A DNA stretch of 64,000 bases from a virus (lineage: Duplodnaviria; Heunggongvirae; Uroviricota; Caudoviricetes). Positions 4,516 through 58,461 of this stretch are shown piece after piece. The DNA is taken from IMG/VR virus record IMGVR_UViG_3300035670_000017, positions 64,850 to 128,849 of that record, one strand, 5' to 3'. Numbering within the stretch: the stretch's first letter is position 1; each line of letters opens with the position of its first letter. The notes beneath the pieces were generated by a model. That model was not told the origin of the DNA. It saw only the letters and a list, made by a program, of their open reading frames with translations, and made no database searches. Both the position numbers and the translations under genes were made by a program.

Positions 4516-6159
4516 ATGACCAAACCCGCTTTCCAAACATACATTGATTTTGTTAACTCCACTGATCTGGAGAACAACCCTCGTCGAGTTATCGTCTTCC
4601 ATCATGGTGACATGGATGGCTACATGGGTGCCGCAGCTGCTTTGCGCGGCTTCCATAGCTTTTGTATCGACGGCAACTATGCCGTATCCAAGGGTCACCA
4701 GAACCTGCTGCAAAACATCATCTTCAAGGAAGTCAATTACGGTCGCATTGATGACGAGGAAATCTTGAACATGATCCATCAGCCCGGTACTGATGTGTTC
4801 ATGGTTGATTTCTCCTTCCTGGAAGATCTGTGCGAGAAGATCTACGCTAAGGCGGACTTCTTCCTGATCCTGGATCATCACATTTCCAGTGAGCGTGTTC
4901 TCAAGGGTAAGCCCTATGCTTACTTTGACCCACAAGCATCTGGTGCCAAGATGGCGTTCGAATACTTCAGCCCCGGTGTGGAAGTTCCCTTGGCTGTTCA
5001 GCTGGTGGATAATCGCGACCTTTGGAAAAAGGACACTGGCTGGGAGGACGAATTCCACGAAGCTCTGTATGCACGATTTGTTCGCGCCAAGGAACAAGGC
5101 GAGAACTACAATCAGGCTTTTGTGTCGGAACTGTTCACTGACTATCTGCAGTATCCAGCTGACCCTCTGGGAATGGTGCACAAAATGATTCGCATAGGCA
5201 CGCCCATGGTTGAACGTCGTGATATCGGTATCCGTTCTATGTGCAGCGACAAGCGTTTGATCGAGACTATCATCGGTGGCCATCCCGCTATCGCAGTGAA
5301 CGCTCCTTTGGACCAATCGGATGCCGGTGAATACTTGTACAACCAAGACAAGTACAAGAACCACATCATCGCTTTGTTCAATGTCTTGAACGACAAGATG
5401 ACCTTCAGTCTGCGTCGTAACGAGAACTTGGATATTGATTTGTCAGCGCTTGCTCAAAAGCACTATGGTGGTGGCGGTCATTCTCCTGCGGCTGGTTTTG
5501 CAGTTCCATTGCAGCGTGGCCTGAATATCATCCAGAACAAGGAGAAGTGGGCGCTTTGCTGGCCAACAGCGGCTGTCAAGCAGGCCATGGGTGCAGCTGA
5601 TCTGGCGCAAGTGGCTCAGGATCTGAGCGTCATCACACCCGAGCTGCATTCGCGTGCTGTCTGTGAGACAAATCTGGACCTACTGCAGATCCTCCCTTAC
5701 ATCGTGATCAAGCACACTGACGGAACCTATTTCACATACAACCGTCCTTCCTCTGGCACTGAGTCTCGCTTGCATGGTAATGACTCGGTTGGCCTGGGTG
5801 GACATGTGGATACAGCTCCTGCTGCTGGTGTCTCGATTGGCCTGCATCTGGGATTGGAAGCTCAGCGTGAACTCATGGAAGAAGTTGGATTCAGTGATGA
5901 ATCTCTCCCCACTCAGATCGAACAAGCGTTCTACAACGGTCAATTTGCTTTGATCAATGTGAACACTCGTCCTGTGGATGCGGTTCATCTGGGAATCGTC
6001 TTCGTGATTGAAGTCACTGACAAAGCACATCTGACCAAGATCGAAGAGTCTGAAGTGATCAATCCTCGTTGGTCTACTTTGGAAGAGCTGCGCAATCTGC
6101 CAAATCCTGAAACATGGACGCGCATTTTCGCACATGAGCTGCTGCAAAATCCGATGTAA
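4516..6159 (+). CDS. DHH/DHHA1 phosphoesterase fused to a C-terminal Nudix hydrolase domain (547 aa)
   Basis: DHH motifs VFHHGDMDG and LILDHHISS. DHHA1 GGGH box HYGGGGHSPAAGFAV. C-terminal Nudix-box-like GLHLGLEAQRELMEEVGF (REuxEExGu). Confidence 0.7.
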   Translation: MTKPAFQTYIDFVNSTDLENNPRRVIVFHHGDMDGYMGAAAALRGFHSFCIDGNYAVSKGHQNLLQNIIFKEVNYGRIDDEEILNMIHQPGTDVFMVDFSFLEDLCEKIYAKADFFLILDHHISSERVLKGKPYAYFDPQASGAKMAFEYFSPGVEVPLAVQLVDNRDLWKKDTGWEDEFHEALYARFVRAKEQGENYNQAFVSELFTDYLQYPADPLGMVHKMIRIGTPMVERRDIGIRSMCSDKRLIETIIGGHPAIAVNAPLDQSDAGEYLYNQDKYKNHIIALFNVLNDKMTFSLRRNENLDIDLSALAQKHYGGGGHSPAAGFAVPLQRGLNIIQNKEKWALCWPTAAVKQAMGAADLAQVAQDLSVITPELHSRAVCETNLDLLQILPYIVIKHTDGTYFTYNRPSSGTESRLHGNDSVGLGGHVDTAPAAGVSIGLHLGLEAQRELMEEVGFSDESLPTQIEQAFYNGQFALINVNTRPVDAVHLGIVFVIEVTDKAHLTKIEESEVINPRWSTLEELRNLPNPETWTRIFAHELLQNPM

Positions 6160-11984: not shown

Positions 11985-12108
11985 ATATTTTCCCCTATAA
12001 AAGTATTAACCATAGGATACTCTAGGCGTTTGTCCAATAATGACGATATCCCTATATCCCATAGTAGAGAACATGTCACTAGTATTAGAGGGATAGTTAT
12101 GTCTAATG

Positions 12109-14219
12109 ATTTCATTTGGCCAGAGGAAAAATACCAACAGCAGATCAATCCTGTCAAACAGTACATCGATCAAGCGAGTAAGTTTATCTCCGTTAACCGC
12201 GGGATAACTCTGGACAAAGCCAGAAACTTTATTGTTCAAAAGCTCAAGAACAAACAGACCAACTTCAAAGATCCTCAAATCACCTACTTCGAGCGAAACG
12301 ACAACTGGGTACGTGAACTCAAGCAAGGAACTTTGTCGGGATACTTGAAGTCGGCGATTGATAACAAGGAAGTTATCGTCCCTACGTTTACAACCTATGT
12401 CAGTCCGGATGTAGAGCAGTCCTTGATCTCGCTTTTCATGAAGCGAAACGCAGGTCGGCGTGGCGTTTTGAAGAAACAAGCGCAAGTTGAAGAGATGCGC
12501 GGCAATAAAGAGCTAGCTTACCAGCTCAATAACCAACAGGACAACGCCAAGCGCAATAATAACTCCATGTCTGGGGTGATGGCCGCTGCTGGTAGTATCT
12601 TCGAGAATCCTACAGGTCACAACACGTTGACCTCTATGACTCGTTCGATGTCTTCTATCAGTAACGCTCTCAATGAACGCATGATCGGTGGCAATCGCCA
12701 CTATCTGGACAGTGAAGCAGCCCTGAACAACATGACTGCTTTGATCAGCACTATGGATATCGAATTGGTTCATCAAGCTATGGTCAAGTACAACCTAGCT
12801 GAACCCACTCCCGATGACATCGTGCGTATTGTTTCTCGCAGTGCTGATAAATACTGGCGAGATCCTCGTCACGTCAAATACATCTGGGATTATGCATCCA
12901 AGATGACTGGTCTGGAACGTGCAGCTGTCGCTTATACCCAAGACTTGTACCATATTCGTGAACTCAATCCTCAGTTCATGCGTAACTTCATTGAAGACTT
13001 TGCGCTGTGGGATAGTTCCATTGAAATTGTAGACCCCATTGACTTCATCAATAAGATCGACCCACTGATTGCTAACTACGCGCACCAGGTTTTCATCACT
13101 GATCTGCGTGGGCAAGACAAAGACCGTCGCCGCTGGAAGCCTGAACTTCAGATGAAGGTAGCTCAAGCATGTGCAACTATCGAGCGAGCCATCAAGAAGT
13201 ACAAATGTCTTATTGATGCATTCCTGGTAGTCCGTACCCTACCTTGCACTACGGCCCACATCAACCACATGGCTCGTGAATCCGTGGTTCTCTCGGATAC
13301 AGACTCGACCATGTTCGCAGTAGATGACTGGGTGATCTGGTACTTCGGTGATCTACAGTTCTCTGACTTGGCTTTTGCCGTAGCAGGCTCGATCATGTTT
13401 GTGTCGACACAGTTGATTGCCCACGGCATGGCTTTGTTGTCAGCCAATATGAACGTAGCTCGTGATAAGCTATTCGTTCTGGCTATGAAGCCGGAGTTCG
13501 TGTTCCCTGTGTTCGCTCAGACCCCTGTGGCCAAGCACTACTTCTGTTCCGTGTCTGTGAAGGAAGGCGGCGTCTACAAGGAAAATGAATACGAAATCAA
13601 GGGCGTGCATTTGAAGAGTTCCGCGTCTCCTATCGAGATTGTGGGTGCTGCTCAAGATCGCATGCGATTCATCCTGGATGAGATTCAAGCAGGTCGCAAA
13701 CTTGACGGCTATGCTGAATACAAACGTGTTGCTGATCTGGAACGAAAGATTGAAGAATCTATTCGCAAGGGTGAATCTGTCTTCTTGAAGAAGATGTTCA
13801 TCAAGACAGCAGCAAGCTATGCCAAGGGACCTGAAGAATCTCCTTATCGCTACCATACTCTTTGGAACGAAGTCTTCGCTCCATCGTACAGCAGTTTGGA
13901 AGAGCCTCCGTACGTGGTGTTGAAGTTTCCTATGACCACGGAGTCTAAATCGAAGATGGCGGCATGGATTGCTTCCTTTGAAGACCGTGGACTGGCAGAC
14001 CGATACATTCGGTACCTGCAAAAAGTTCAAAAGACTGAAATCAAGACGATGTACATTGCTAAGGACTACGTGGAAGCTTATGGCATCCCTAAGGAAATCC
14101 TGCGAGCAGTGGACATCAAGCGCGTTATCTTGGACTTGACGGTGATCGACCGGATGGTTCTCGAAACAATCGGCCTCAAACCTAAACATGAAACTCTCGT
14201 TTCCGAGATGGGATATTGA
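12109..14219 (+). CDS. large conserved hypothetical protein (703 aa from ATG 12109; frame open from 12030)
   Basis: AGAGGGATAGTTATG RBS-start. Motifs KRNNNSMSG, VLSDTDST and AKHY are faintly polymerase-palm-like but no motif A was found. No Walker A. Confidence 0.55.
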
Positions 14220-16133: not shown

Positions 16134-17198
16134 TTACAGCTTCAAATATTTAGACAAGGATATGTCGTAGAATGCAGCCATGTTGTCACTCATGTTTAGA
16201 TAAGGGACCTTAGCAGCTCTTACCTGACGAGCAAACACCTTGAGCTTCGTGATAAAGCCTTGATTAGCCCTACGCCCACCGGGACCACCGACATCCAACA
16301 AGAAGTTGATCACCTTCATCCGAGTAGCCAGCATTGCCCAATCTACTTGTGTAGTGGGGATGAAGTCCGGCAGCGTCAAAGCTTCCAAAGCACTAGAAGC
16401 GTAGACACAAGGAATGTTTTGCAGCATATCCTTATACTGCATCCGAGTATCAGAGATACGCTCTAGTACAAACCGAGCAATCTTTTCAAACTCAGCACTG
16501 TATGAAGGAAGGTAATAATTAGAGTTGACCCGAGACATGTATCGGTAGTCTCCATCATAGACAGCGATGAGTGCTGAGATCATCGTGATGTCCGCTTGAG
16601 ACTCTAATATAGAAGGAAGTACAAACGTAGCAACGAACTGATCTTCCCCCAGGACCATTGCTTTGAACTTAGGATCTTCTTTGAAGCCTTTATACATCAA
16701 AGCCATCAGAGGTATGTCCAGGTGTACAGCGGCTAGTCCGTCTTGGATTTGCAAGTTAGCATTCGGGACACTCATATCCAGATGGTCTTGATCCAACCAC
16801 ATGGCCTTGAGTGGCCTCAATGAACTCCAGTTACTAACAGCCTGATAAGGTCGAACATAATTGGTCGACGTATAAATCATGTTGTCAGTAAAAGAGTAGA
16901 CTTTGTGCTTCAAGAAGGAGCCAGGGTTAAACTCAGTAGTGAACTGAAAGTTCTTAGAGATATAAGGAGATCTAACTATGGCGTTGTTCTGAAGATCAAC
17001 GGCGTCATATGTATAGACCCCAGAGTGCTTGAGCGCTTGTACGAAAGGATGAGCCGAAGGAACACTACGGACATTACTGGCGTAGTACTCTTGCATCCGT
17101 GTGACGTTTTGTTTGATCTTGTTTCTGAAGTTATCTATGCCAGGAGCATTTGAGACAAGGGCTCTGGCTTGGTAAGTGTTGGTGAAAATGTCCAGCAT
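16134..17198 (-). CDS. hypothetical protein (354 aa), minus-strand island gene
   Basis: Long ORF divergent from the chimallin-like gene. No motif recognised. Confidence 0.55.
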   Translation of the reverse strand: MLDIFTNTYQARALVSNAPGIDNFRNKIKQNVTRMQEYYASNVRSVPSAHPFVQALKHSGVYTYDAVDLQNNAIVRSPYISKNFQFTTEFNPGSFLKHKVYSFTDNMIYTSTNYVRPYQAVSNWSSLRPLKAMWLDQDHLDMSVPNANLQIQDGLAAVHLDIPLMALMYKGFKEDPKFKAMVLGEDQFVATFVLPSILESQADITMISALIAVYDGDYRYMSRVNSNYYLPSYSAEFEKIARFVLERISDTRMQYKDMLQNIPCVYASSALEALTLPDFIPTTQVDWAMLATRMKVINFLLDVGGPGGRRANQGFITKLKVFARQVRAAKVPYLNMSDNMAAFYDISLSKYLKL

Positions 17199-17406
17199 AT
17201 CTTTGTACTAGTTATCGAAAGTGAAGGGAGTCTTATCAATGACCATACTATCGGTTTGAGTTGGTAGTAAATAAAAATAAGTTTTTGTATATACTGTGGA
17301 CAAAACCCTATGCAGCCTTCGGGCTGCGGGTGGGAGATGTTCGGGTATTTTACAAATAGGGAAATAAGGCGTAATAAAAAACCCCTTTCTAAAATATTTA
17401 GACCCT

Positions 17407-17424
17407 ATATACTCTACTTGAGGT
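17407..17424 (+). promoter_or_regulatory. motif copy 3 TATATACTCTACTTGAGG
   Basis: In the 330-bp divergent region, 108 bp upstream of ATG 17532. Confidence 0.55.
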
Positions 17425-17531
17425 AAAGCTGCTTCTTGTAGTAATCTCACAGACTCGTGCAATAAAATGCGGCGAGTAGATAACAACCCCCAACCCTTCA
17501 TCAACAAAGACTTTTTCGAAAAGGATACATC

Positions 17532-19460
17532 ATGGCTATCAATGTCGACCTGAACAACCTGGGCAACAACGGTGACGCACCCAAGCCCCAACCAAGCACT
17601 GACCGCAGCGAGGGTCAGCGTCCTTCCTCGGACAATTCTCGCACCTTCACTCAACAGACGAAAAACATGAGCAACATCTTCAATCCCTTCGACAACACCG
17701 GCGGTCAAGTTCTGGGCCGCATGATCCATCCTGAGTCCGGCTCCGAAGCGTTCAAGCGCGTGGTTGAGCTGCTGACCAAGACAGCTGCTGAAACCAACGG
17801 CGCTATCGAGATCTTCCCCTTCCCTCGCGAAATCCACACCGACCTGAGCCACTCGGTCATCGCTGTGGTCCGCAGCAACAAGGTCCCCGTGGGTCCCGGT
17901 CGCCCCAAGCACGATTTCGTGACTTGCCAGATCTGGATCATGGAAGCCACTGGCGAAGTGCCTCGTGCTCATGAAGTGGTCGAAGGTGGCAAGCGCTGGA
18001 TGGTGACACCCACCATCGAAGACAGCCATAACACCATCCTGGTCGAATACGTGTCTTCGACCCTGCGCAACCACTACGGCCAAGAAACCCTGGTCATGAC
18101 GATCGATCCCCTGATCATTCCTCGTGAACAAGATCTGACCAAGGACGAACGCCTGGTGGCTCAGCTGGACGTGTCGATCACCGCTGTGAACACCCGCACC
18201 TATGTGCGCATCGACGGCTTCCAGGACTACAACTACGTTGCCAACCACGGCGGCAAGGATGTTATCCTGGCTGTGTCGACCAGCATCCGTCCCGAGACCC
18301 GCACCGACCTGCAAAACCGTCCCTTCTACTCCGACGCCGAAGTGGTGGTCTCCGTGGAAAAGAACGGTCCTCGCACTCAAGGCGAAGTGTTCCACCAGCC
18401 TTCCACGACCAAGGATGTCTGCGCGACTTCCGTGATGGTGGACCTGGTGCCCGTGGACGCTGAGCTGCTGGAAGTCAACCGTTCGCACCGTGGTTCGGGT
18501 TTCCGTCCCAAGGCTGCATGGGCTCCTCGTCTGACTGCCGTCAACGTCGACCAGTTCTTCACCCGCACTCCTGCTGGTATCCTGTTTGCGCTGACCTCGA
18601 TGACACAGCTGGCTGCTGACCGCGCATACGCTGAGACTTTCCGTCCCAGCAAGCAACGCGACGCAGTGAACCTGCGTGACATCGGCTACCTGAACATCGA
18701 AGCCAACCTGGACGACGAAGAAGGCGAATACGGCAGCCGCGTGCCTGTGCAAGACGCCAGCGACAGCGAAATCGGCAAGTTCCTGGACCTGACCGTGACC
18801 CGCTTCCCTATCCTGGCCGTCGACTGCATGACCACTGGTCCTCAGGCGTACTACACCACCGGTCTGTACAACGTGGCTCGTGGCCGCAGCGACAGCGCTC
18901 GTCGCGCTCAAGCCGAACTGTATCACAGCCTGCGCTGCGCTACCAACGGCCTGATCGAGAACTTCGTCAGTCCTGACGAATCGTTCGTGGCTGACGAAGG
19001 TGAGCTGATCCATGTCGGTTACTGGATCGATGACAACGGCCGTCGCCGTGACCTGCGTGAGCTGGACAACTATCTGGCTGTGGCTGCTCTGTCCAAGAAC
19101 AACCCTCGCCTGATCGACGACTGGTGCGCTACCTACCACCGCATCGACATCGCTGAAGCTCGCCGCATGAGCGACCGCTGGAACATCCTGATGGCCATCT
19201 CGGCCAATGAGGCTGTCCAGACCGGCACCGCGCTGCGCGTGGGTATCAACGACAAGGTGGTGAGTGGTTTCGTGGACGCTCTGAGCGAAGCCAAGCTGCC
19301 TATGGTCAGCCGTGGCAGCGGCAATGGCGACGCGTTCGCAGTGCATCGTGCTGTCAGCCGTACCGCTGGCCGCTCCATGTACCGTGGTCAAGGCATGGCC
19401 CACAGCCAAGTCGCCGCCGGTGGCCGCGCTACCAGCCGTTGGGCTGCAGACCGCTTCTAA
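17532..19460 (+). CDS. highly expressed 642-aa protein; candidate phage-nucleus shell protein (chimallin-like); major capsid protein is the alternative
   Basis: GC3-rich codon usage unlike its neighbours. Disordered N-terminus (~60 aa) and C-terminus (~50 aa) flank a ~530-aa core. Followed by the RNAP beta-prime N gene, as in phiKZ gp54-gp55. Confidence 0.5.
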   Translation: MAINVDLNNLGNNGDAPKPQPSTDRSEGQRPSSDNSRTFTQQTKNMSNIFNPFDNTGGQVLGRMIHPESGSEAFKRVVELLTKTAAETNGAIEIFPFPREIHTDLSHSVIAVVRSNKVPVGPGRPKHDFVTCQIWIMEATGEVPRAHEVVEGGKRWMVTPTIEDSHNTILVEYVSSTLRNHYGQETLVMTIDPLIIPREQDLTKDERLVAQLDVSITAVNTRTYVRIDGFQDYNYVANHGGKDVILAVSTSIRPETRTDLQNRPFYSDAEVVVSVEKNGPRTQGEVFHQPSTTKDVCATSVMVDLVPVDAELLEVNRSHRGSGFRPKAAWAPRLTAVNVDQFFTRTPAGILFALTSMTQLAADRAYAETFRPSKQRDAVNLRDIGYLNIEANLDDEEGEYGSRVPVQDASDSEIGKFLDLTVTRFPILAVDCMTTGPQAYYTTGLYNVARGRSDSARRAQAELYHSLRCATNGLIENFVSPDESFVADEGELIHVGYWIDDNGRRRDLRELDNYLAVAALSKNNPRLIDDWCATYHRIDIAEARRMSDRWNILMAISANEAVQTGTALRVGINDKVVSGFVDALSEAKLPMVSRGSGNGDAFAVHRAVSRTAGRSMYRGQGMAHSQVAAGGRATSRWAADRF

Positions 19461-19506
19461 TAGAAGCACAGCCTCTAGCAATAGGGGCTTTTAACTGAAG
19501 CATACT

Positions 19507-19539
19507 CTACACTCTACCGCTTAATGCGGTAGAGTGTAG
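19507..19539 (+). terminator. terminator-like hairpin (ctacactctaccgc ttaat gcggtagagtgtag)
   Basis: 14-bp perfect stem 47 bp after the stop. Weak T-run. Confidence 0.5.
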
Positions 19540-19927
19540 GGATATGTATTTGACTACAAATTCTCTCCGTCAAGAAAATGGTATCCGCAACTGTTCGCAC
19601 AAATCTGGGTGTATTCATCGAAACCGATCGTAACATCGAGACGTCCGATTTCCTCAAAAAGTTGAAACAGAAATTCCAGCACCACCAAGATATCCGCATT
19701 CAGATCAACACCGTTGGAAACCATTTCCTGCTGGAGGGTCGCCTAAGTCAGTTTAGGCTTAAAGGGTCCTAGTAGTTCCATGTATAGCGTCTTCTCCTTC
19801 ATGGACAAGGCGACTATACATGGGGCTGCTGGGACTCTTCTTTTTTACCCTCTGTAAATATATAGACAGTAGTCTATTACTTTGAGAGCCATCTCATCCC
19901 TTCCCTTCTCAACCCTCAAGGATACTT

Positions 19928-20467
19928 ATGTCTGAAAAACAATTTTCCATGGACGATCTGAAAAAGCGCATCGAAGAGTCCGTCATCGTGAACATGGGTA
20001 TGATGATGCCTGAAGAGGCATTGAAAGAATTGGTGACCAAAGCCATCGATCGTTTCTTTTCAGCACAAGAGAAATTCGTCGTGACCCGCAATCATGATAA
20101 CGGATACAGTTCGTCGCGTGTACCGAATGTGTCATGTACCATGGAATGCTCTACGTTCGAGATGATGGTCTGGAATGCTATCTTCCCGATTGTCAAAGAG
20201 CACTTGAAGAAATTTGTGGAAGACACCAAGAGCGAACTCAATAAGGTCGTTGAGGAGACCACTAATAATCTCAACGAGAAGCTCAAGACACTGACCCTGC
20301 AAAACGCTGTCTCTGTGATCCCTGTTATACAGGAATATAAATTGCTTACTTCGGTGAACGACACCATGCGAAACATGTTGGCTAGTATCCATACTACTTT
20401 CTGTGTGAACCGATTGGAAACCGGTACACTCAAAGACCCTCTGACCGGTAACACTCCATTCTGTTGA
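19928..20467 (+). CDS. hypothetical protein (179 aa)
   Basis: CAAGGATACTTATG RBS-start. Confidence 0.5.
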   Translation: MSEKQFSMDDLKKRIEESVIVNMGMMMPEEALKELVTKAIDRFFSAQEKFVVTRNHDNGYSSSRVPNVSCTMECSTFEMMVWNAIFPIVKEHLKKFVEDTKSELNKVVEETTNNLNEKLKTLTLQNAVSVIPVIQEYKLLTSVNDTMRNMLASIHTTFCVNRLETGTLKDPLTGNTPFC

Positions 20468-20500: not shown

Positions 20501-20518
20501 TATATACTTCACTTGAGG
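20501..20518 (+). promoter_or_regulatory. motif copy 4 TATATACTTCACTTGAGG
   Basis: 47 bp upstream of GTG 20565. Overlaps the left arm of hairpin 20518-20536. Confidence 0.5.
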
Positions 20519-20564: not shown

Positions 20565-21734
20565 GTGCCTATTATTAATAGGTTTGTAAATCATGATGAG
20601 CTTTATGAAAAAGCGATCGCATCGGGAATCACCCCGATCATCATCAATGATCTACCGAATACTACAGAAGCCGACAAGCAGTACATCCGAGATCTGACAC
20701 TCACTCAACTTACCAGCGACACGATCAACACGATCCCCAGCTGTAAGTGTGGAGCTACCCGTGGCAAATATGCCATCGGCAAGGTCTGCCCGATTCCTAC
20801 ATGCGGAGACGTCGTCAAGACTAACATCGAAGACTCCTCTCGGTCTTTGCTCTGGGTGCGAGCACCTGAGGGTGTAGATGCATTGGTATCTCCGGTGGTT
20901 TGGAAGATGCTCTCCGCGTACTTCACCAAGAACAACCACAATGCGATTGCGTGGCTGACTGACTCTCACTATACAAGTGCTTCTCGAACTCCCGTGGAGA
21001 TTGATAAGCTGTATCGCAAGGGTCACGAGAGGGATCTGAATTATTTCATCAGGAATTTCGACACGATCTTGTTGGACCTGATGGAGATCTTCCCTGAAAA
21101 GCCAAATCGCAGGTATAACAAACTGCGGCATTTCATCGACGAACACCGAGACATCATCTTCAGTCGCTTTCAACCGATTGCTTCCCGGAACTTGTTCATC
21201 ACGGACAAGACCAATCTGGGTATCTACATGGAAGATGCGATCAAGGATGCCCTGGACACCATCTATCACTTTGTGTCGATCGACGCAGAGTTCTATGATC
21301 GGTCTCCTAAGGTGATCGCTAATCGAACAGCGCGCTTTCTTGCCAGACAAGCGGAGTTCTATCCCGACTACATCACTACGAACTTTCAGCCAAAGCCGGG
21401 TCACTACCGACGCTATATGCTGGGTGCTCGTAACATCTTCTCTGCTCGCGGTGTGATCACATCAGTCACAGGTGAGCATAAGTATGACGAAGTCGGTATA
21501 CCGTGGCGTATCGCAGTTCCGATGTATAGTCATGACCTCATGGGTAAACTCATGCGGTACGGCTATAACTTCAATGAAGCTCTTGGCTATGTGATGCGAA
21601 AGGTTGTCGTATATGACAAACTGATCCATCGCTTCTTGGATGAGATCTTCAGTGAGTCTCCTGGTGGACGTGGACCTTCGATGATCTTACATCGGAACCC
21701 AACGCTTATACATTCAATATATTCATACATATAG
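20565..21734 (+). CDS. multisubunit RNA polymerase beta-prime, N-terminal fragment, exon 1 (reading frame runs into intron 1)
   Basis: GTG start with AGGAAGG RBS. Zn ribbon CKCG-x11-CPIPTCG. RRYMLGARNIFSARGVITSV matches GKRVDFSGRSVI. ILHRNPTLIHS matches NRAPTLH. Confidence 0.8.
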   Translation: MPIINRFVNHDELYEKAIASGITPIIINDLPNTTEADKQYIRDLTLTQLTSDTINTIPSCKCGATRGKYAIGKVCPIPTCGDVVKTNIEDSSRSLLWVRAPEGVDALVSPVVWKMLSAYFTKNNHNAIAWLTDSHYTSASRTPVEIDKLYRKGHERDLNYFIRNFDTILLDLMEIFPEKPNRRYNKLRHFIDEHRDIIFSRFQPIASRNLFITDKTNLGIYMEDAIKDALDTIYHFVSIDAEFYDRSPKVIANRTARFLARQAEFYPDYITTNFQPKPGHYRRYMLGARNIFSARGVITSVTGEHKYDEVGIPWRIAVPMYSHDLMGKLMRYGYNFNEALGYVMRKVVVYDKLIHRFLDEIFSESPGGRGPSMILHRNPTLIHSIYSYI

Positions 21735-23150
21735 TATGAGAGTATTGAAGCGTCGATATCTCTCTTATTTAAGCTAGGGAAATACCGATGTCTAATGAAA
21801 CTGTAATTAACTTTGACGGAGAAGACTGGAAAGCTGTTCCAGGGTTTTCAGATGTTTACGTGACTAAAACCGGACGAGTTGCCGGTAGACGTCGGGGAAT
21901 AATGATCGAGAGAATATACCAGAAAAGCAATCGCTTATACGGTATCGATGAAAATGGAAACGAATCCAGATACATCCTCGTGACTCTTCCCGGTAAAAAA
22001 GGAGGTAGATCCCGGACAAGCACAGGCGTTCATCGTCTTGTTTGTTTGACTTGGAACGGACCGCCACCATCTGACGATAAGAAATATGAAGTTAACCACA
22101 TAGACGGAAACAAGGCTAATAATAACGCCAAGAATCTGGAATGGGTTACCGGATCTAAGAATGTTCAACATTGTTACAACATCGGAAAGCACTCTGTTGC
22201 TCGACGAATAGTTGCCACCAATGTTGATACTGGTTTGGTTAAATACTATCGCTCGGGAAAACAATTAGCCGACGAATACGGATTTAATCATTTCCACGTC
22301 TCATCTTTCCTCAATAAACATGAAACCGACCCCTTGGATGGGTGGGTTTTTGAATACGAGGCGACGGATGAATCTACTTCTTATCGACATCACTCTTCGC
22401 GTCAAATAGCTTATAAAGACTATCTAACTAATGTAATACATCTCTTGCCGTCTTGCAGAGCAGCTTCTAGCCTATCTAAAGTCAAATGCGGAACTATTGT
22501 TTCCGCTGTACGATATAATAGACTCAATGGGCCGCGCTTAACAGGACAATTCGTTTTTCAGGATCTAACCGCGAATATGGTCTGGCCTGAATATACGAAG
22601 GAGGAGATTGAGACAAGTATAGAAAGTATGCGTAAGCGTTCGTTACTTACAGCGAAACGACATCGTTTCTAAAGTTTAAATAAGGGAGATATTGGCGAGT
22701 AGGCCGATTATCTAGAAATAGGTAATTGAAATCTACCTTTTTGCGGGGAACTCTCGTTAGGCTCTATCTACCAAGTACAATGAGTAATTGTTGTATGGCT
22801 TGTCTAGTCAGCAAGGTACGGTAACAAGGATAGAGATAGAGACAATCGCGCAGCGAAGCTCCCACTGGGAGTAGCGTTCAACGACTAGAGCTGAAATGCT
22901 CGTAGGGCCCAAGCGGGCGTGCAACTTGCACCGTAAGCCGAAATGGTAGACACCTGACCAGGTAATGCTGAAGGTGAAGATATAGTCTGTTCCATCTCTG
23001 AACTGACAGAGAGTAATGAGCGAAAGCTCTGGCGGGTGTCCTAGCGCACCGGCTTAATTCAAAGATCGACGTGAGTCGTGGCGGTTTTAAGCGGACATTA
23101 AGGCAACAAGGTTCCATGCAGCGCTTCTTTGGTAAGCTGAAGACTGATCC
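21735..23150 (+). mobile_element. group I intron 1 (about 1.4 kb, boundaries approximate) carrying an HNH homing-endonuclease ORF
   Basis: Core elements downstream of the HEG: P 22741 TTGCGGGGAA, Q 22844 AATCGCGCAGC, R 22876 GTTCAACGACTAGA, S 22977 AAGATATAGTC. No protein-coding signal 22673-23150 apart from the micro-exon. Confidence 0.6.
21788..22672 (+). CDS. HNH homing endonuclease (294 aa), intron-encoded
   Basis: HNH motif VHRLVCLTWNG...YEVNHIDGNKANNNAKNLEWVT. N-terminal NUMOD-like WKAVPGFSDVYVTKTGRV. Own RBS GGGAAATACCGATG. Confidence 0.8.
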   Translation: MSNETVINFDGEDWKAVPGFSDVYVTKTGRVAGRRRGIMIERIYQKSNRLYGIDENGNESRYILVTLPGKKGGRSRTSTGVHRLVCLTWNGPPPSDDKKYEVNHIDGNKANNNAKNLEWVTGSKNVQHCYNIGKHSVARRIVATNVDTGLVKYYRSGKQLADEYGFNHFHVSSFLNKHETDPLDGWVFEYEATDESTSYRHHSSRQIAYKDYLTNVIHLLPSCRAASSLSKVKCGTIVSAVRYNRLNGPRLTGQFVFQDLTANMVWPEYTKEEIETSIESMRKRSLLTAKRHRF

Positions 23151-23214
23151 AACCGATCCAAGTATCGGGATGAGCATTCTGACAGTCGTACCGCCTAACG
23201 CTGACTTCGACGGT
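23150..23214 (+). CDS. beta-prime micro-exon 2 encoding ...SIGMSILTVVPPNADFDG (5' boundary approximate)
   Basis: Aligns to beta-prime IQLHPLVCAAYNADFDG. The 3' end is fixed by P1 pairing of exon GACGGT with intron GCCGTC (23224-23229), with U.G at the splice site. Confidence 0.5.
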
Positions 23215-23512
23215 AAACATATTGCCGTCTCTAAACTCTTTTAATTGCTGGGAACTCCTTAGAGCCTAATAGACCACTGCGAGTCGAAAGACAAAGCCAA
23301 GGTTTGACAACTATCAGGATTGGATAATCAGCAGCTAAGCCCCTTGAGTGCTAATTGACATAGGGGAAAGTTCACAGATCATCGAAAGGGTAGGCTAAAA
23401 GCCGAGTAACCGAGTAGAGTAGAATCCACTAGCGGTAAGGTGGAAAGAAATGGAGAGCACTCTGTAAAGAGTGAAGATATGATCGGTCCGCTTCGAAAGA
23501 ACGCGGGATGTG
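23215..23512 (+). other. group I intron 2 (about 298 nt, ORF-less)
   Basis: IGS GCCGTC 23224-23229. P 23242 AATTGCTGGGAA, Q 23326 AATCAGCAGC, R 23370 GTTCACAGATCAT, S 23474 AAGATATGATCGG. The 3' exon start AAAATG can pair with CATATT (P10). Confidence 0.55.
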
Positions 23513-23757
23513 GATAAAATGACCTACCACATGACTCAGGGTACGCTCCTGAGGAAAGCTCTGACGAGTTAATGGTCCACGGATGCACTCAACCTCATGA
23601 GAGCTGTTGATAAGAAGATGGCTGATTTCTGGGAAGTATTCGCTACCCATTACAACATCTTCTTGCTGGATAACCCGATGGAAGCATCTGGTAATCTGGC
23701 CCTTACTAAGCCTATCGTGATGAGCGGTGGTGCTTGGCTGGAAGACGAAGACGACTA
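23513..23757 (+). CDS. beta-prime exon 3: DKMTYH... completes NADFDG|DKMTYH; stops at TAA 23570 overlapping ATG 23572; a second frame continues to 23757 (frameshift or extra split unresolved)
   Basis: NADFDGDKMTYH compares with the universal NADFDGDQMAVH. The downstream frame ...NIFLLDNPMEASGNLALTKPIVMSGG resembles beta-prime [20 protein letters not shown]. Confidence 0.45.
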
Positions 23758-30054: not shown

Positions 30055-31350
30055 ATGACATTTCCCTTCATCGCAAAGAAAAAACTGACTCAACCTTTCT
30101 TGACAGTACAGGAAATTGCTGATCGCGAGACAGTCTTTTTGCAAGCTATGCTGCAAGATCCCCTGTTCAAGCGGAACTTCCTGGAGTGGTTTGAGTACTA
30201 CGATAAAAATCGTGAGAACATGCACATCTACTCCGTCAAGCGCAAGTGGGCTGAAGACATCGGTCAGCTTCTGACTGGTCTGACGACTGAATTGCATCGT
30301 TTCGTCAAAGAAGTTCTGCAACGCCACTCTCCCGAAGAACTGTTCCAGCTCTACCCGATGCCAGGTGTGAGTCAAGAGCGCTTCATCGAGTTCGCTAAAT
30401 ATGCGAAGTGGACAGCAGAGCAAAACCATCGCAACATTGGCTCTCGTTACGACTTTGCGATCAATCCATCCGGCAATATCTTCATCTATGAAATCAATGC
30501 CGACACTCCGTCGATGCTGTTTGAATCGATGAACTTGCAGAACTTGATGTCTGAGCATCTGGGTAACACTGAAGCTCAGTTCAATGAGATCTGGGAGATG
30601 TCTAAGGATAATCCTTTTGTCGGGCCTGATGAAACCGTCGCAATCGTGACGCATGACAAGTCGGGTGAAGACTTTGGTTCGGTGGAATCGATTGCTCAGT
30701 TGGCTGAGAATGGTGGCGGTACTGTTTTGTTCAGCACTTTGGATGACTTGATGTTCGACCCTGAAGAAGAGCATCGTAGTCCATTCTTCCTAAAGTCGAT
30801 CCCTGAAACAGAACTGGATAGCCTCTACGTCATGCTTCCTTGGGAAGAGATGCTTGAGTCGGAAATGAAGATCATTGAGAACTGGGAGAAGTGGTGTGAA
30901 TACGTCAACTTCTTCGAACCAGCTTGGGCTTGGTTCCTTTCCCATAAGTTCTTGCTGGCTGATTTCTGTGCTGAATACGGACGCAGTTTCTCGATCGACG
31001 GTATCACGCCGATTATCCATTTGGATTCTTCTCGAACACCAGTCGCAATTGGTGAATATGTGAGCAAGCCGGTGGTTGGACGCAAGTCTTCCGACGTAGC
31101 GATTCATTGTGCTATGTCTATCGGCCCACAAGGTCAGATATACCTGCATAAATCCAAGAACGAAACCTATTCACATGTTCCTATGGTCTATCAGCCTCTT
31201 CGTGAGACGATCAAGATCGACGGAGCAAGTGCTATGGGATGCATGTGGACTTACGGCCCATCAGCGGCTTGTCTGAGCTTCCGTGAATTCGATGGCCCTA
31301 TCCTGGAAGTTGATAACGAACGTGTCATCATGCACGAACTCGTTGATTAA
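30055..31350 (+). CDS. GSP_synth-family ATP-grasp enzyme (glutathionylspermidine synthetase-like, 431 aa)
   Basis: Motif NIFIYEINADTPSMLFES recalls the EFNADTP signature of glutathionylspermidine synthetase / YgiC-YjfC ATP-grasp proteins. Confidence 0.45.
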   Translation: MTFPFIAKKKLTQPFLTVQEIADRETVFLQAMLQDPLFKRNFLEWFEYYDKNRENMHIYSVKRKWAEDIGQLLTGLTTELHRFVKEVLQRHSPEELFQLYPMPGVSQERFIEFAKYAKWTAEQNHRNIGSRYDFAINPSGNIFIYEINADTPSMLFESMNLQNLMSEHLGNTEAQFNEIWEMSKDNPFVGPDETVAIVTHDKSGEDFGSVESIAQLAENGGGTVLFSTLDDLMFDPEEEHRSPFFLKSIPETELDSLYVMLPWEEMLESEMKIIENWEKWCEYVNFFEPAWAWFLSHKFLLADFCAEYGRSFSIDGITPIIHLDSSRTPVAIGEYVSKPVVGRKSSDVAIHCAMSIGPQGQIYLHKSKNETYSHVPMVYQPLRETIKIDGASAMGCMWTYGPSAACLSFREFDGPILEVDNERVIMHELVD

Positions 31351-38671: not shown

Positions 38672-39424
38672 ATGTCAGAGGTAACGAAAGAAAATCAAGC
38701 TGTGCCTTTGGTCTTGTTCTCCGGTGGTTTGGACTCCACTGCTGTACTGGAATGGGCTCTGAAAGAATACCGCAGAGTCGATGTCCTTAGCTTTGAGATG
38801 AGTGGACAGCCTGAGAAATCTCAAAAGGAGGAGAAAGCTCGAAGGGCTATCTTTCTGGAATTATCGAGGCTTCATGCTGAAGATCCTAAGACCTACGGTG
38901 AAATTGGGATGCATTTTGTAGAACGCATTCCCGGCCTTAAGCGTTTTCACTGTTCGTCTCGAATGCCTCAGATGGCAGGTTGGTTAGGTGCTACTCCTAA
39001 TTACGTATCCATGCAGACCAATGCAGTGTATGTCGGCACCGTTTTAGGGGATACGCAAGGCACTCGTTTCACTGACGCACAATGGGCGTGGTCTTATCTC
39101 TGTTCCACTACTGAGACAACTGGTTTCGAAGGCCAAGCTCCTCAGCTAGAAGCCCCTTATCGATATAAGACCAAGAACGAGTTATTGGAGCTGGTGTCTC
39201 CTTCCTTGTTGCAACATGTCCAGTGGTGTGAAGGTAAGGACGAAGGAGATTGCGGTAAGTGTGATTCCTGTCTACGGATGCTGCAAGTCGCAGCCATTTC
39301 TTCGACCCTTCATCCGGAGATTTATGACGCATCTCTGTTAAAGGATCGTCTTCACCAACTGCTGGTGTGTCATCGAAAAACATCATTGTACTCGGAAGAT
39401 GTATCCGTACCGAATACTCAATAA
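38672..39424 (+). CDS. QueC-like PP-loop ATP pyrophosphatase (250 aa)
   Basis: PP-loop LFSGGLDSTAVLEWAL. C-terminal Cys cluster WCEGKDEGDCGKCDSCLRM like the QueC zinc site CxxxxxxxGCGxCxxC. Confidence 0.55.
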   Translation: MSEVTKENQAVPLVLFSGGLDSTAVLEWALKEYRRVDVLSFEMSGQPEKSQKEEKARRAIFLELSRLHAEDPKTYGEIGMHFVERIPGLKRFHCSSRMPQMAGWLGATPNYVSMQTNAVYVGTVLGDTQGTRFTDAQWAWSYLCSTTETTGFEGQAPQLEAPYRYKTKNELLELVSPSLLQHVQWCEGKDEGDCGKCDSCLRMLQVAAISSTLHPEIYDASLLKDRLHQLLVCHRKTSLYSEDVSVPNTQ

Positions 39425-56052: not shown

Positions 56053-56375
56053 TGCAGCAATACACACACGGATACATCACCAGACTGCACCCATTGAACA
56101 TGGTGTCTTTGTATTTGACTGCCTGTTATTTAAAGGAATACTACGGATATCAAGTGCTTACTGGTGCGTGCTTTTCTCTCTTGACCGCTCGGTTATCGGA
56201 GAACTTTGATTTCATTCAAGAGCATCCTCATGCTTTCTTGATCACACAGGAAAACCTGAAGTCCAATGACACCAGCTTCATCATGGAAAGTAAAGTGCCT
56301 GTCAGAATAGGTTTCGCCGCCAAACAACTTTTAGAAACATCCAGACAAGGAAAGTTATATGAAAGATCAGCTTGA
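56049..56375 (+). CDS. hypothetical protein (108 aa), possible third MQQ-family member
   Basis: Begins MMQQYTHGY. ATGA overlap upstream and overlaps the ligA start. Confidence 0.4.
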   Translation: MMQQYTHGYITRLHPLNMVSLYLTACYLKEYYGYQVLTGACFSLLTARLSENFDFIQEHPHAFLITQENLKSNDTSFIMESKVPVRIGFAAKQLLETSRQGKLYERSA

Positions 56376-58461
56376 GTTAATTCAAGAAATCGATGAACTT
56401 AATTCCGAGATCAAAAAGCATGATCTGGCTTATTATAAGACACTCAAGCCAACTATCCCGGACAGTGAATACGATGCTAAGATCGTGAAGCTTCGTGAAC
56501 TGGTCGATCAGCTAGATGATTCTAGCGTCGTTCGAACTGTGTTGGATGAGCCAGCCTCTGATATACAGGATGTGGTTTGGTCGATGGATCACGAGCGCCC
56601 TATGCTTAGTATTCGCACAGAAGTGGATACTTCGGAAGCTCCTATCGAGAAATTCCATGAGCGGGTGTGTCGTTTGCTTAAGACTACGGATGTGGAATAC
56701 ATCGCGGAACCTAAGTATGACGGTCTCGCTGTCTCTTTGAGATACTCACTCAAACACGGTGTGCCTACTTTGGCATTCTGTTTGACTCGCGGAGACGGGA
56801 CAGCTGGCGAGGACATCTCCGGTAATGTGATCCATGTATCAAATGTACCTCTGCGTCTGCAAGGCGGATTACAGCTGGATAAGATCACTGAGATTCGCGG
56901 GGAGTTGCTACTTCCTAAAAATTGCTTAAAGGAGATCAACGAATATCGCGTGAGGATTGGTAAGCCGGAGTTCGTCAATTGTCGAAATGCCATCGCTGGT
57001 ATCATCAGGCAAAAAGAACCTGACTTGGAGTTACTGAAACGAGCAGTCTTTATGCCGTATGCGGTATTCCAGTCGGAACCTACGATTGGCTTCCAGTCAG
57101 TGGCTTTGGCAGTCCTGGCTCAAGTATGTCCCAATCCGTTCAAGATCAATCCCGTTCGCTACATCGGGGACTACAAAGGACTGTTTGCTGCTTATCAAGA
57201 ACTTGAGCTTCAAAGAGATTCCCTTGATTTTGAAATCGATGGCATTGTCTACAAGGTCAATGACATCAAGCTGCAAGGAAAGCTCGGTGTATCTGGTCGT
57301 GAACCGAAATGGGCGATCGCTCATAAGTTCCGTCCTCAAGAAGCCAAGACCACTTTGCAGAGCATCGACATCCAAGTCGGTCCTTCTGGTCGCATCACAC
57401 CGGTAGCTAGACTGGAGCCTGTATTCGTAGGCGGGACAACTGTTACGAATGTGACGTTATCCAACTTCGATCAGATCCAGCAAAAGGATATCGCTCCCGG
57501 TGACGTCGTCTATGTTCGCCGTGCTGGTGACGTGATTCCTGAGATCATGGGTCGAGCCAGTGAGAGGGTTGGTCCAGTCCCAGAAATCGTAGCTCCGGAT
57601 CATTGTCCGTCTTGTGGTACTCCGGTGACTCGACGAGAAGGAGAGGTCAATTATTACTGCCCAAACACCTATGGCTGTGGTGCTCAAATAGCCGGTGGTA
57701 TCGAACGTATTTGTTCACGCAAGTACTTGGATATACAGGGCATCGGGGAAGTAGTAGCCAAGATGATTCAAGAGTCAGGGAAAGTGAAGAACCCTCTGGA
57801 TCTGTTTACTCTTGGCTTGGATGACTTCAAAGACTTAGGTCTAGGGGATCTGACTGCTTCCAAGATCATGGTTAATCTGTACACTATCCTGAGTACGCCA
57901 TTGCCTTTCAATAAGTTCCTGGAAATTCTAGGAATCTTCGGTATTGGTGAGCGAGCGTCCCTTAAGATCGCGGAACAAGTAGGTAGTCTCGACGGACTGA
58001 TAGCTGCCTTAGGTTCATTGGAGGACCTGAAAGGGATAACTGTCGCTCATGTCCGGGATATCCGTGAGTTCTTTGCCCGCACACAAGTTCCAACGGTGCT
58101 CAGTAATCGTCCTATGACGATGATTGATTTCCTGCGTGAACTGATACAGCGTTTTAAGATCGTGAACTATGAGCCTAATGTCGATGCGATCCTTGGTAAC
58201 AAGACAATCGTTCTGACAGGAAGCACTTCTGGTATCGATCGAAACGACTTCAAGAAGAAATGTCAGCAACTCGGAGCTGTCATCGGAAGCTCTGTCTCTA
58301 AGAACACATCTGTTGTTGTTTACGGAGATGGCGCAGGTGATAAATACGACAAGGCTGTCAAACTGAAAATCCCAACCCTGACTTATGAGGAATTCATTGC
58401 GCAATTTCCTGAGTCCAATCCAAACAAAGAGGAACTATGCTTAACATTGAAGCAAATTTGA
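56359..58461 (+). CDS. ligA: NAD+-dependent DNA ligase (700 aa)
   Basis: N-terminal Ia region (DLAYYKTLKPTIPDSEYD). Adenylation KxDG motif EPKYDGLAVSL. Zn finger CPSCGTPVTRREGEVNYYCPNTYGC. C-terminal BRCT (KTIVLTGSTSGIDRNDFKKKCQQLGAVIGSSVSKNTSVVVYG). Confidence 0.9.
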   Translation: MKDQLELIQEIDELNSEIKKHDLAYYKTLKPTIPDSEYDAKIVKLRELVDQLDDSSVVRTVLDEPASDIQDVVWSMDHERPMLSIRTEVDTSEAPIEKFHERVCRLLKTTDVEYIAEPKYDGLAVSLRYSLKHGVPTLAFCLTRGDGTAGEDISGNVIHVSNVPLRLQGGLQLDKITEIRGELLLPKNCLKEINEYRVRIGKPEFVNCRNAIAGIIRQKEPDLELLKRAVFMPYAVFQSEPTIGFQSVALAVLAQVCPNPFKINPVRYIGDYKGLFAAYQELELQRDSLDFEIDGIVYKVNDIKLQGKLGVSGREPKWAIAHKFRPQEAKTTLQSIDIQVGPSGRITPVARLEPVFVGGTTVTNVTLSNFDQIQQKDIAPGDVVYVRRAGDVIPEIMGRASERVGPVPEIVAPDHCPSCGTPVTRREGEVNYYCPNTYGCGAQIAGGIERICSRKYLDIQGIGEVVAKMIQESGKVKNPLDLFTLGLDDFKDLGLGDLTASKIMVNLYTILSTPLPFNKFLEILGIFGIGERASLKIAEQVGSLDGLIAALGSLEDLKGITVAHVRDIREFFARTQVPTVLSNRPMTMIDFLRELIQRFKIVNYEPNVDAILGNKTIVLTGSTSGIDRNDFKKKCQQLGAVIGSSVSKNTSVVVYGDGAGDKYDKAVKLKIPTLTYEEFIAQFPESNPNKEELCLTLKQI

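Follow-up and report, generated by a model that had tools for sequence, protein, structure and literature searches.

Structures of chimallin (ChmA), the major shell protein of the phage nucleus, are available for phages 201phi2-1 (gp105; PDB 7SQQ/7SQR/7SQS and 8IGG), phiPA3 (PhuN, gp53; PDB 8FNE), and Goslar (PDB 7SQT-7SQV), the latter two having Pseudomonas and E. coli, respectively, as hosts. In 201phi2-1 ChmA, the N-terminal tail (residues 1-47) is dispensable, the NTS (residues 48-61) holds tetramers together, and CTS1 (residues 590-611) and CTS2 (residues 622-631) link tetramers via flexible linkers (PMC9365700). According to the literature, chmA and the nvRNAP genes are the first to be transcribed by vRNAP, and ChmA belongs to the most abundant proteins made early. 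The early promoters of vRNAP are AT-rich motifs that can be detected bioinformatically (PMC7598289), and the early promoter of phiKZ, of which gp54 uses one, consists of an extended -10 element plus an upstream T-rich tract (PMC8244752).

Here we have analysed a stretch of 64,000 nucleotides of phage DNA (IMG/VR record IMGVR_UViG_3300035670_000017, positions 64,850 to 128,849), referred to below as the window. A previous sequence-only reading had noted in it a codon-optimised 642-aa ORF and considered the product a candidate chimallin; the ORF, here termed chmA, is present exactly as described.

The chmA gene and its product

The gene and the segments of its product are the following:

17532..19460, + strand: chmA, coding very probably for chimallin, the major phage-nucleus shell protein; 642 aa plus stop, ATG start
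17424..17531, + strand: putative chmA 5' UTR with Shine-Dalgarno sequence, from direct sequence reading
17532..17675, + strand: N-tail, residues 1-48; variable, N/Q/S/T/P-rich, predicted disordered, pLDDT about 30
17676..17720, + strand: putative NTS-equivalent, residues 49-63 (IFNPFDNTGGQVLGR); conserved block in the disordered N-terminus
17721..19304, + strand: predicted two-domain core, residues 64-591; N-terminal alpha/beta domain and GNAT-like C-terminal domain
19305..19391, + strand: putative CTS1-equivalent, residues 592-620 (MVSRGSGNGDAFAVHRAVSRTAGRSMYRG); conserved block, low pLDDT
19422..19457, + strand: putative CTS2-equivalent, residues 631-642 (GRATSRWAADRF); conserved terminal block after a variable linker

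An AAGGA Shine-Dalgarno sequence can be read at 17521-17525, 6 nt 5' of the ATG, and the family alignment shows that the MAxN N-terminus is kept throughout the family. The 5' UTR exceeds the distance seen at other genes that bear the promoter motif described below (35-89 nt), and RNA folding detected no significant structure in it (z -0.49). Since each of the 16 nucleotide changes seen between strains is synonymous, chmA appears to be under purifying selection between strains of this phage. A 757-aa antisense ORF (17208-19481, - strand) had no family match and was discarded as a by-product of the chmA codon bias.

The chmA product was recognized by Pfam family PF25677 (Chimallin_Phikzvirus) with 59 bits, the gathering cut-off being 27 (residues 15-589), and by PHROG 4795, 'nuclear shell protein', at 6e-43 (residues 16-635); PF25677 is also carried by the existing precomputed annotation of the protein. 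A phmmer search of the PDB matched only phiPA3 PhuN (1e-8) and chimallin (4e-5). Comparison of the clade profile with 201phi2-1 gp105 using hhalign resulted in a probability of 99.9% (E 2.8e-31) over 488 columns, in an alignment that spans residues 71-591 here and 71-578 of gp105 and leaves the tails outside.

An AlphaFold model based on a shallow 14-sequence clade alignment (pTM 0.76, mean pLDDT 75.7) was confident for a core comprising residues 70-603 and had pLDDT values below 50 at residues 1-69 and 604-642, in good agreement with the low-complexity tails of about 60 and 50 aa and the core of about 530 aa that had been read from the sequence. The model predicts the two-domain core fold of the solved chimallin structures, with a C-terminal domain of GNAT-related fold. 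The Foldseek check that had been proposed for such a model returned nine significant PDB matches, all of them chimallins (201phi2-1, phiPA3, and Goslar; E 1e-30 to 1e-25, TM 0.75-0.81), and the best non-chimallin match had an E value of 0.17.

These searches also bear on the possibility that the protein is a major capsid protein with an HK97 fold, in which case its signs of high expression would stem from the bulk production of virions late in infection. Capsid genes, too, are typically strongly codon-optimised, and the phiKZ capsid gene gp120 shows a ChmA-like shift (GC3 of 0.42-0.43 in chmA and gp120 as compared to 0.24-0.30 in 13 other genes; r = 0.87 between the codon-preference deviations of the two), so that composition alone cannot separate capsid from shell protein. 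However, an HK97 fold, named beforehand as a finding that would favour a capsid, was absent from both structure searches of the model, and all of the previously proposed checks that were run spoke for chimallin; the capsid reading is refuted by the fold search, and its probability is negligible.

Alternatively, the protein may be a chimallin-fold paralog with another role, such as an accessory or minor shell protein or the relic of a GNAT-type toxin. This would be compatible with the large divergence from characterised ChmAs and with the distant resemblance of the C-terminal domain to the fold of GNAT tRNA-acetylating toxins (AtaT/TacT), a likeness that covers only about 110-145 residues. However, no other gene of the chimallin family was seen in the window, and chmA is located at the syntenic position of its orthologs. 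Its product has kept the full-length architecture including both tails, and such an extreme expression signature is in keeping with a structural protein made in bulk. Pfam gave no acetyltransferase family match, no sequence-family match to GNAT toxins was found in the chmA product, and nothing suggests an enzymatic activity. We thus give a paralog only a very slight chance. The 642-aa protein is a very divergent chimallin, and as such a further member of a known family, and we are highly confident that it is the major nuclear-shell protein and an ortholog of phiKZ gp54, 201phi2-1 gp105, and Goslar ChmA, at an identity to characterised ChmAs of only 16-24%.

The tails appear to possess the NTS, CTS1, and CTS2 layout of 201phi2-1 ChmA, the segments having been equated by position and conservation pattern and not by significant sequence alignment. 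The N-tail (residues 1-48) is the counterpart of the dispensable tail of 201phi2-1 ChmA and has the lowest conservation in the chimallin clade alignment, and residues 49-63 align with the 201phi2-1 NTS (alignment A2). The CTS1-equivalent contains the conserved residues LPxVSR, GxGDxF, R, and YRG, and its position matches that of 201phi2-1 CTS1, whereas the C-terminal aromatic residue is common to the ChmA proteins of phiKZ, 201phi2-1, FLC9, and AgentSmith and to this protein. The chimallin tail architecture claimed previously is thus borne out by conserved blocks at the NTS, CTS1, and CTS2 positions, and by analogy with 201phi2-1, residues 49-63, 592-620, and 631-642 would have a docking role. 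That a tail architecture presumed to hold the shell lattice together persists at large divergence helps to define the residues that matter for assembly.

Gene neighbourhood and transcription signals

The chmA gene is located in a conserved Chimalliviridae core block, beside the nvRNAP beta' N-fragment gene. The features surrounding it are:

12030-14219: family B DNA polymerase gene (divergent, PolB), from a Pfam search
16134..17198, - strand: phiKZ gp52 / 201phi2-1 gp98-like gene; BLASTP 2e-8 to gp98, PHROG 3938
17382..17423, + strand: early-promoter-like motif consisting of CCCCTTTCTAAA, an AT-rich spacer, and TATATACTCTACTTGAGG; from recurrence and conservation
19500..19547, + strand: terminator-like hairpin with a T-rich tail; dG -35 kcal/mol, z -9.4, terminator scan
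20565..23572, + strand: nvRNAP beta' N-fragment gene, PHROG 2987; predicted exons at 20565-21707, 23104-23214, and 23507-23572
21708-23103, + strand: intron 1 of this gene, with an HNH endonuclease ORF (21788-22672); missing from near-identical strains
23215-23506, + strand: intron 2, splitting the catalytic motif between NADFDG and D

A DUF7484 gene is found within the block, between PolB and the gp52-like gene. The order PolB, gp52-like gene (- strand), chmA, and nvRNAP beta' is common to phiKZ, 201phi2-1, Eowyn, LucasX, and AgentSmith, in a synteny check that comprised four core genes and not the 21 Chimalliviridae-specific genes. The divergent arrangement of the gp52-like gene and chmA is also present in phiKZ, Eowyn, LucasX, and AgentSmith, and in FLC9 unannotated ORFs of similar size follow one another as in the chmA block. 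Two statements of the sequence-only reading on this neighbourhood proved correct, namely, the adjacency of the phiKZ gp54-gp55 type, seen in the same gene order in phiKZ and 201phi2-1, and the presence of one small gene between chmA and the beta' N-fragment gene, which is a lone 179-aa ORF (19928-20467). This ORF has no similarity to 201phi2-1 gp106 or to anything in two relatives, L006 and L005, whose ChmA proteins are 69% and 43% identical to that of the window. Given this lack of a counterpart in relatives, the slot between chmA and the RNAP gene is variable and does not contain a conserved partner. A Pfam match of the 179-aa ORF to Baculo_p74, in which no domain passed alone, was attributed to chance. 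Within the 64-kb window, neither tRNA genes nor a PhuZ tubulin were recognised.

Two group I introns (Rfam RF00028, 57 and 61 bits) are predicted within the nvRNAP beta' N-fragment gene; their boundaries were derived from a strain without intron 1 and from the restoration of NADFDGD. The predicted splicing of intron 2 would restore NADFDGDVDKMTYH. The number of introns in this place varies from one to four among relatives, and phiPA3 provides a published precedent for a mobile intron in the RNAP gene of a chimallivirus (bioRxiv 10.1101/2023.09.30.560319).

Upstream of chmA, TATATACTCTACTTGAGG is found at 17406-17423 with CCCCTTTCTAAA 5' of it. The pattern TATATACNNNACTTGA, allowing up to two mismatches, had 10 matches in the window, whereas 1.4 would be expected, and none of 100 shuffled sequences gave as many. 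The own promoter motif that had been claimed for chmA turned out to be one copy of an extended element, composed of CCCTTTGTA, a T-run, and TATATAC(T)NNACTTGAGG, that is present at nine intergenic sites on the + strand, 35-126 nt 5' of ORF starts; the nvRNAP beta' N-fragment gene has its own copy at 20501, and the motif recurs at seven further sites of the window. It is kept 109-126 nt 5' of the chmA ATG in both L006 and L005. Its architecture, an extended -10 element plus an upstream T-rich tract, matches published vRNAP early promoters, which suggests by analogy that it functions as one, and we infer on good grounds that chmA is transcribed early. A scan for sigma-70 promoters was uninformative, with 1 site found and 1.7 expected.

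The terminator that had been claimed corresponds to the hairpin that follows the chmA stop codon, and in L006 and L005 hairpins of different sequence are located at the same position 3' of chmA. An upstream hairpin (17311-17326) was not significant in energy (z -1.5), though it is kept in relatives.

The GC and codon island of chmA

The sequence-only reading had contrasted a GC content of about 58% with about 45% in the neighbours and had noted a GC3 bias, and both were confirmed by measurement. The GC content is 60.0% for the chmA ORF and 58.3% for the range 17407-19539, and chmA deviates with z = 6.3 from 576 other 1.9-kb segments (mean 44.8%, sd 2.4, max 49.6), making it the sole GC island of the window. 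The GC content at the first, second, and third codon positions is 0.63, 0.45, and 0.73 as compared to 0.53, 0.38, and 0.52 in 13 reference genes, with the third position contributing most. The effective codon use is also narrow, the ENC of chmA being 31.4, whereas the values of 35 other window genes lie at 41-58. All 42 Leu codons are CTG and 31 of the 32 Ile codons are ATC; GGA/GGG, AGA/AGG/CGA/CGG, and CCG are absent, leaving only GGC/GGT for Gly and CGC/CGT for Arg; Pro is encoded by CCT/CCC, Ala mostly by GCT, and 49% of the third positions are C and 8% A. The Fop of chmA is 0.80, and the other genes of the window use the same codons in a graded way (0.34-0.62), the lowest value being that of the homing-endonuclease (HNH) gene. 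At the residue level, Arg and Lys account for 8.3% and 2.6% of the chmA product, respectively, as compared to 5.2% and 5.6% elsewhere. The anomaly of chmA is a bias in codon choice rather than a plain enrichment in GC.

Clade relatives keep the island on backgrounds of 42%, 45%, and 51% GC, and it was present in 9 of the 9 chimalliviruses tested, with shifts of +6 to +15.5 GC points and ENC values of 28-40, the largest shift being that of the window. The GC and codon island is thus a family-wide trait.

If chmA had recently been acquired horizontally from a phage of higher GC content, such an island might also have arisen in the absence of translational selection, and the 15-point GC jump with sharp edges, the raised GC1 and GC2, and the replacement of Lys by Arg could be read in this way. 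However, the island is retained in the relatives of 69% and 43% identity, on backgrounds of 42% and 51% GC, and in six distant isolated chimalliviruses. Furthermore, C- and T-ending codons are favoured and CCG, GGG, CGG, and GCG avoided, all of which plain GC pressure would raise, and the graded preference of other genes in the window for the same codons also speaks against acquisition, as does the report that ChmA trees follow the genome trees and that there is little transfer (bioRxiv 10.1101/2023.02.24.529968). An acquisition is therefore highly improbable. Long-term translational selection on a bulk protein is favoured instead, because the island is conserved across relatives and chimalliviruses, is shared by the capsid gene in phiKZ, and coincides with inter-strain differences that are synonymous. 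A sharp island in GC and codon bias may serve as an annotation rule that helps to find chmA in metagenomic contigs, and the codon set of chmA could supply the preferred codons of the host for host prediction.

The following mechanism is proposed. The injected virion RNA polymerase would recognise the TATATAC-type early promoter at about 17406 and generate a monocistronic chmA mRNA that would end at the hairpin at 19500-19547. Because of the extremely narrow set of preferred codons, a bias that is directly observed, host ribosomes would translate this mRNA very efficiently. The core (residues 64-591, with a fold obtained by modelling) would form tetramers via the N-terminal segment at about residues 49-63. 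The C-terminal segments at about residues 592-620 and 631-642, carried on disordered linkers, would dock on neighbouring protomers and stitch the tetramers into a flexible square lattice, which would surround the replicating phage DNA and exclude host nucleases.

The island could also have a role beyond translation speed and shield or direct the first critical mRNA, or the DNA encoding it, during the vulnerable interval before the shell is formed, for example, by evading AT-biased host nucleases or by helping export from the early infection vesicle. This proposal, together with the separate idea of a new host group, according to which the hosts of the lineage may belong to a group that is not known to have nucleus-forming phages, is speculative and unlikely.

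Relatives and comparison with known systems

The locus had no megablast match among 50,697 phage records, and the phage is therefore not a deposited isolate. Among these records, the maximal identities to isolates are about 25% for ChmA and 36% for PolB; relatives of the chmA product in IMG/VR are 31% identical or less, and none were found among 185,579 reference genomes. The window sequence is identical to part of the ENA contig ERZ4201046 NODE_9 (184.7 kb), and the same ChmA protein occurs in JGI and Logan assemblies. The 69%-identical ChmA relative originates from farm wastewater, and QXGG01, the sole sample accession that was identified in a literature search, corresponds to farm wastewater.

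A word-indexed protein search identified 14 relatives of the chmA product. An exhaustive search with the clade profile retrieved 1,314 representative clusters, of which 839 had E <= 1e-30; among the 150 clusters listed, nearly all were 590-700 aa long and matched over most of their length. Given this number of clusters, divergent uncultivated chimallins are common. Judged by its sequence, the phage appears to be an uncultivated, deeply branching chimallivirus. These data extend the family of nucleus-forming phages to a deeply divergent uncultivated lineage, and the current understanding of phage-nucleus function is unchanged by them.

The closest isolate ChmAs are those of Burkholderia phage FLC9 (gp382; 24% identity over 82% of the query) and Bacillus phage AgentSmith (gp98; 22% over 83%), as determined by tblastn against the 50,697 phage records. 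PolB points likewise to these two phages (35-36%), which are too distant for this phage to be placed in their genera. The identity to phiPA3 PhuN and Goslar ChmA is 16-20%. With 201phi2-1 gp105, the protein shares 18-23% identity, the tails being not significantly alignable; the intervening small ORFs of the two phages are unrelated, and the GC shift is larger here (+15.5 points). The identity to phiKZ gp54 is about 17% (alignment A2), and phiKZ differs in that gp53 is located between gp52 and gp54 and that there is no ORF between gp54 and gp55. However, phiKZ has, like the locus described here, the arrangement of gp52 (- strand), gp54, and gp55, a GC and codon island at gp54 (+12 points), and an early promoter with an extended -10 element and a T-rich tract (PMC8244752).

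Promoter-like elements and the leader of chmA

An extended conserved promoter-like element, consisting of CCCTTTGTA, a T-run, and TATATAC(T)NNACTTGAGG, is found upstream of nine genes of the window, at a distance of 35 to 126 nt from the ORF start, and the extended form is also present in the relative L005. This element is probably the early promoter of the phage lineage, used by the virion RNAP.

Copies of the promoter-like element in the window (all + strand)
6245
9155
17406
20501
33162
40038
40948
49910
55326

Among the nine motif-bearing genes, the chimallin gene chmA has the longest 5' UTR (17424-17531, about 110 nt from motif to ATG), a length that is kept in relatives (109-126 nt), and no significant structure was predicted in it. 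Between the chmA promoter and the gp52-like gene, which is divergently oriented, there is a further segment; a recognisable version of it is retained in L006 and L005, two relatives with ChmA proteins of 69% and 43% identity, respectively.

17287-17345, second copy of TATATACT, part of the palindrome GTATATAC, followed by the small hairpin GCAGCCttcgGGCTGC

This segment could be a second (middle) start site like the one reported for phiKZ gp54; alternatively, it could be a signal serving the minus-strand gene.

An antisense frame and other genes of the window

The entire chmA gene is covered by a minus-strand ORF of 757 aa (17208-19481) of odd composition that gave no family match. It was rejected as a gene: the frame is an artefact produced by chmA's strong codon bias, and a naive longest-ORF caller would choose it. 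Four auxiliary genes were annotated in the window, and most of the remaining ORFs had no PHROG match.

Auxiliary genes
4516-6159, DHH phosphoesterase
30055-31350, glutathionylspermidine synthase
38672-39424, QueC-like protein
56359-58461, NAD-dependent DNA ligase

Insertions and introns downstream of chmA

The stretch 3' of chmA (19548-20467), comprising an intergenic region of roughly 380 nt and a 179-aa ORF, is a variable insertion slot separating two core genes; no counterpart was found in L005, L006, or the reference phages. The next core gene, encoding the nvRNAP beta' N-fragment (20565-23572), is interrupted by a pair of group I introns (RF00028 in Rfam, with scores of 57 and 61 bits), and its predicted spliced product has 439 aa.

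Introns and last exon of the nvRNAP beta' gene
21708-23103, intron 1, holding an HNH homing-endonuclease ORF (21788-22672)
23215-23506, intron 2, with a U.G pair at its 5' splice site, splitting the catalytic motif as NADFDG|D
23507-23572, exon 3, short, bringing back NADFDGDVDKMTYH

The number of introns at this locus differs between strains and relatives (L001/L002, 13035-14579; L006, 15192-15937; L005, 14973-16536). The near-identical strains L001 and L002 carry intron 2 without intron 1, and there are two Rfam matches in L006 and four in L005. Between-strain identity is 97% in exon 1 but only 79% in exon 2, where a co-conversion tract could have been left by intron homing.

The GC and codon-bias island at chmA

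All nine chimalliviruses tested, among them phiKZ, L007, L008, and L010 to L012, have a GC/codon-bias island at chmA, amounting to +6 to +15.5 GC points. No mention of this island as a chimallivirus-wide trait was found in the literature searched. In phiKZ (L009, 7941-9821, and L017, 10269-12512), the codon shift of chmA is common to the major capsid gene (r = 0.87).
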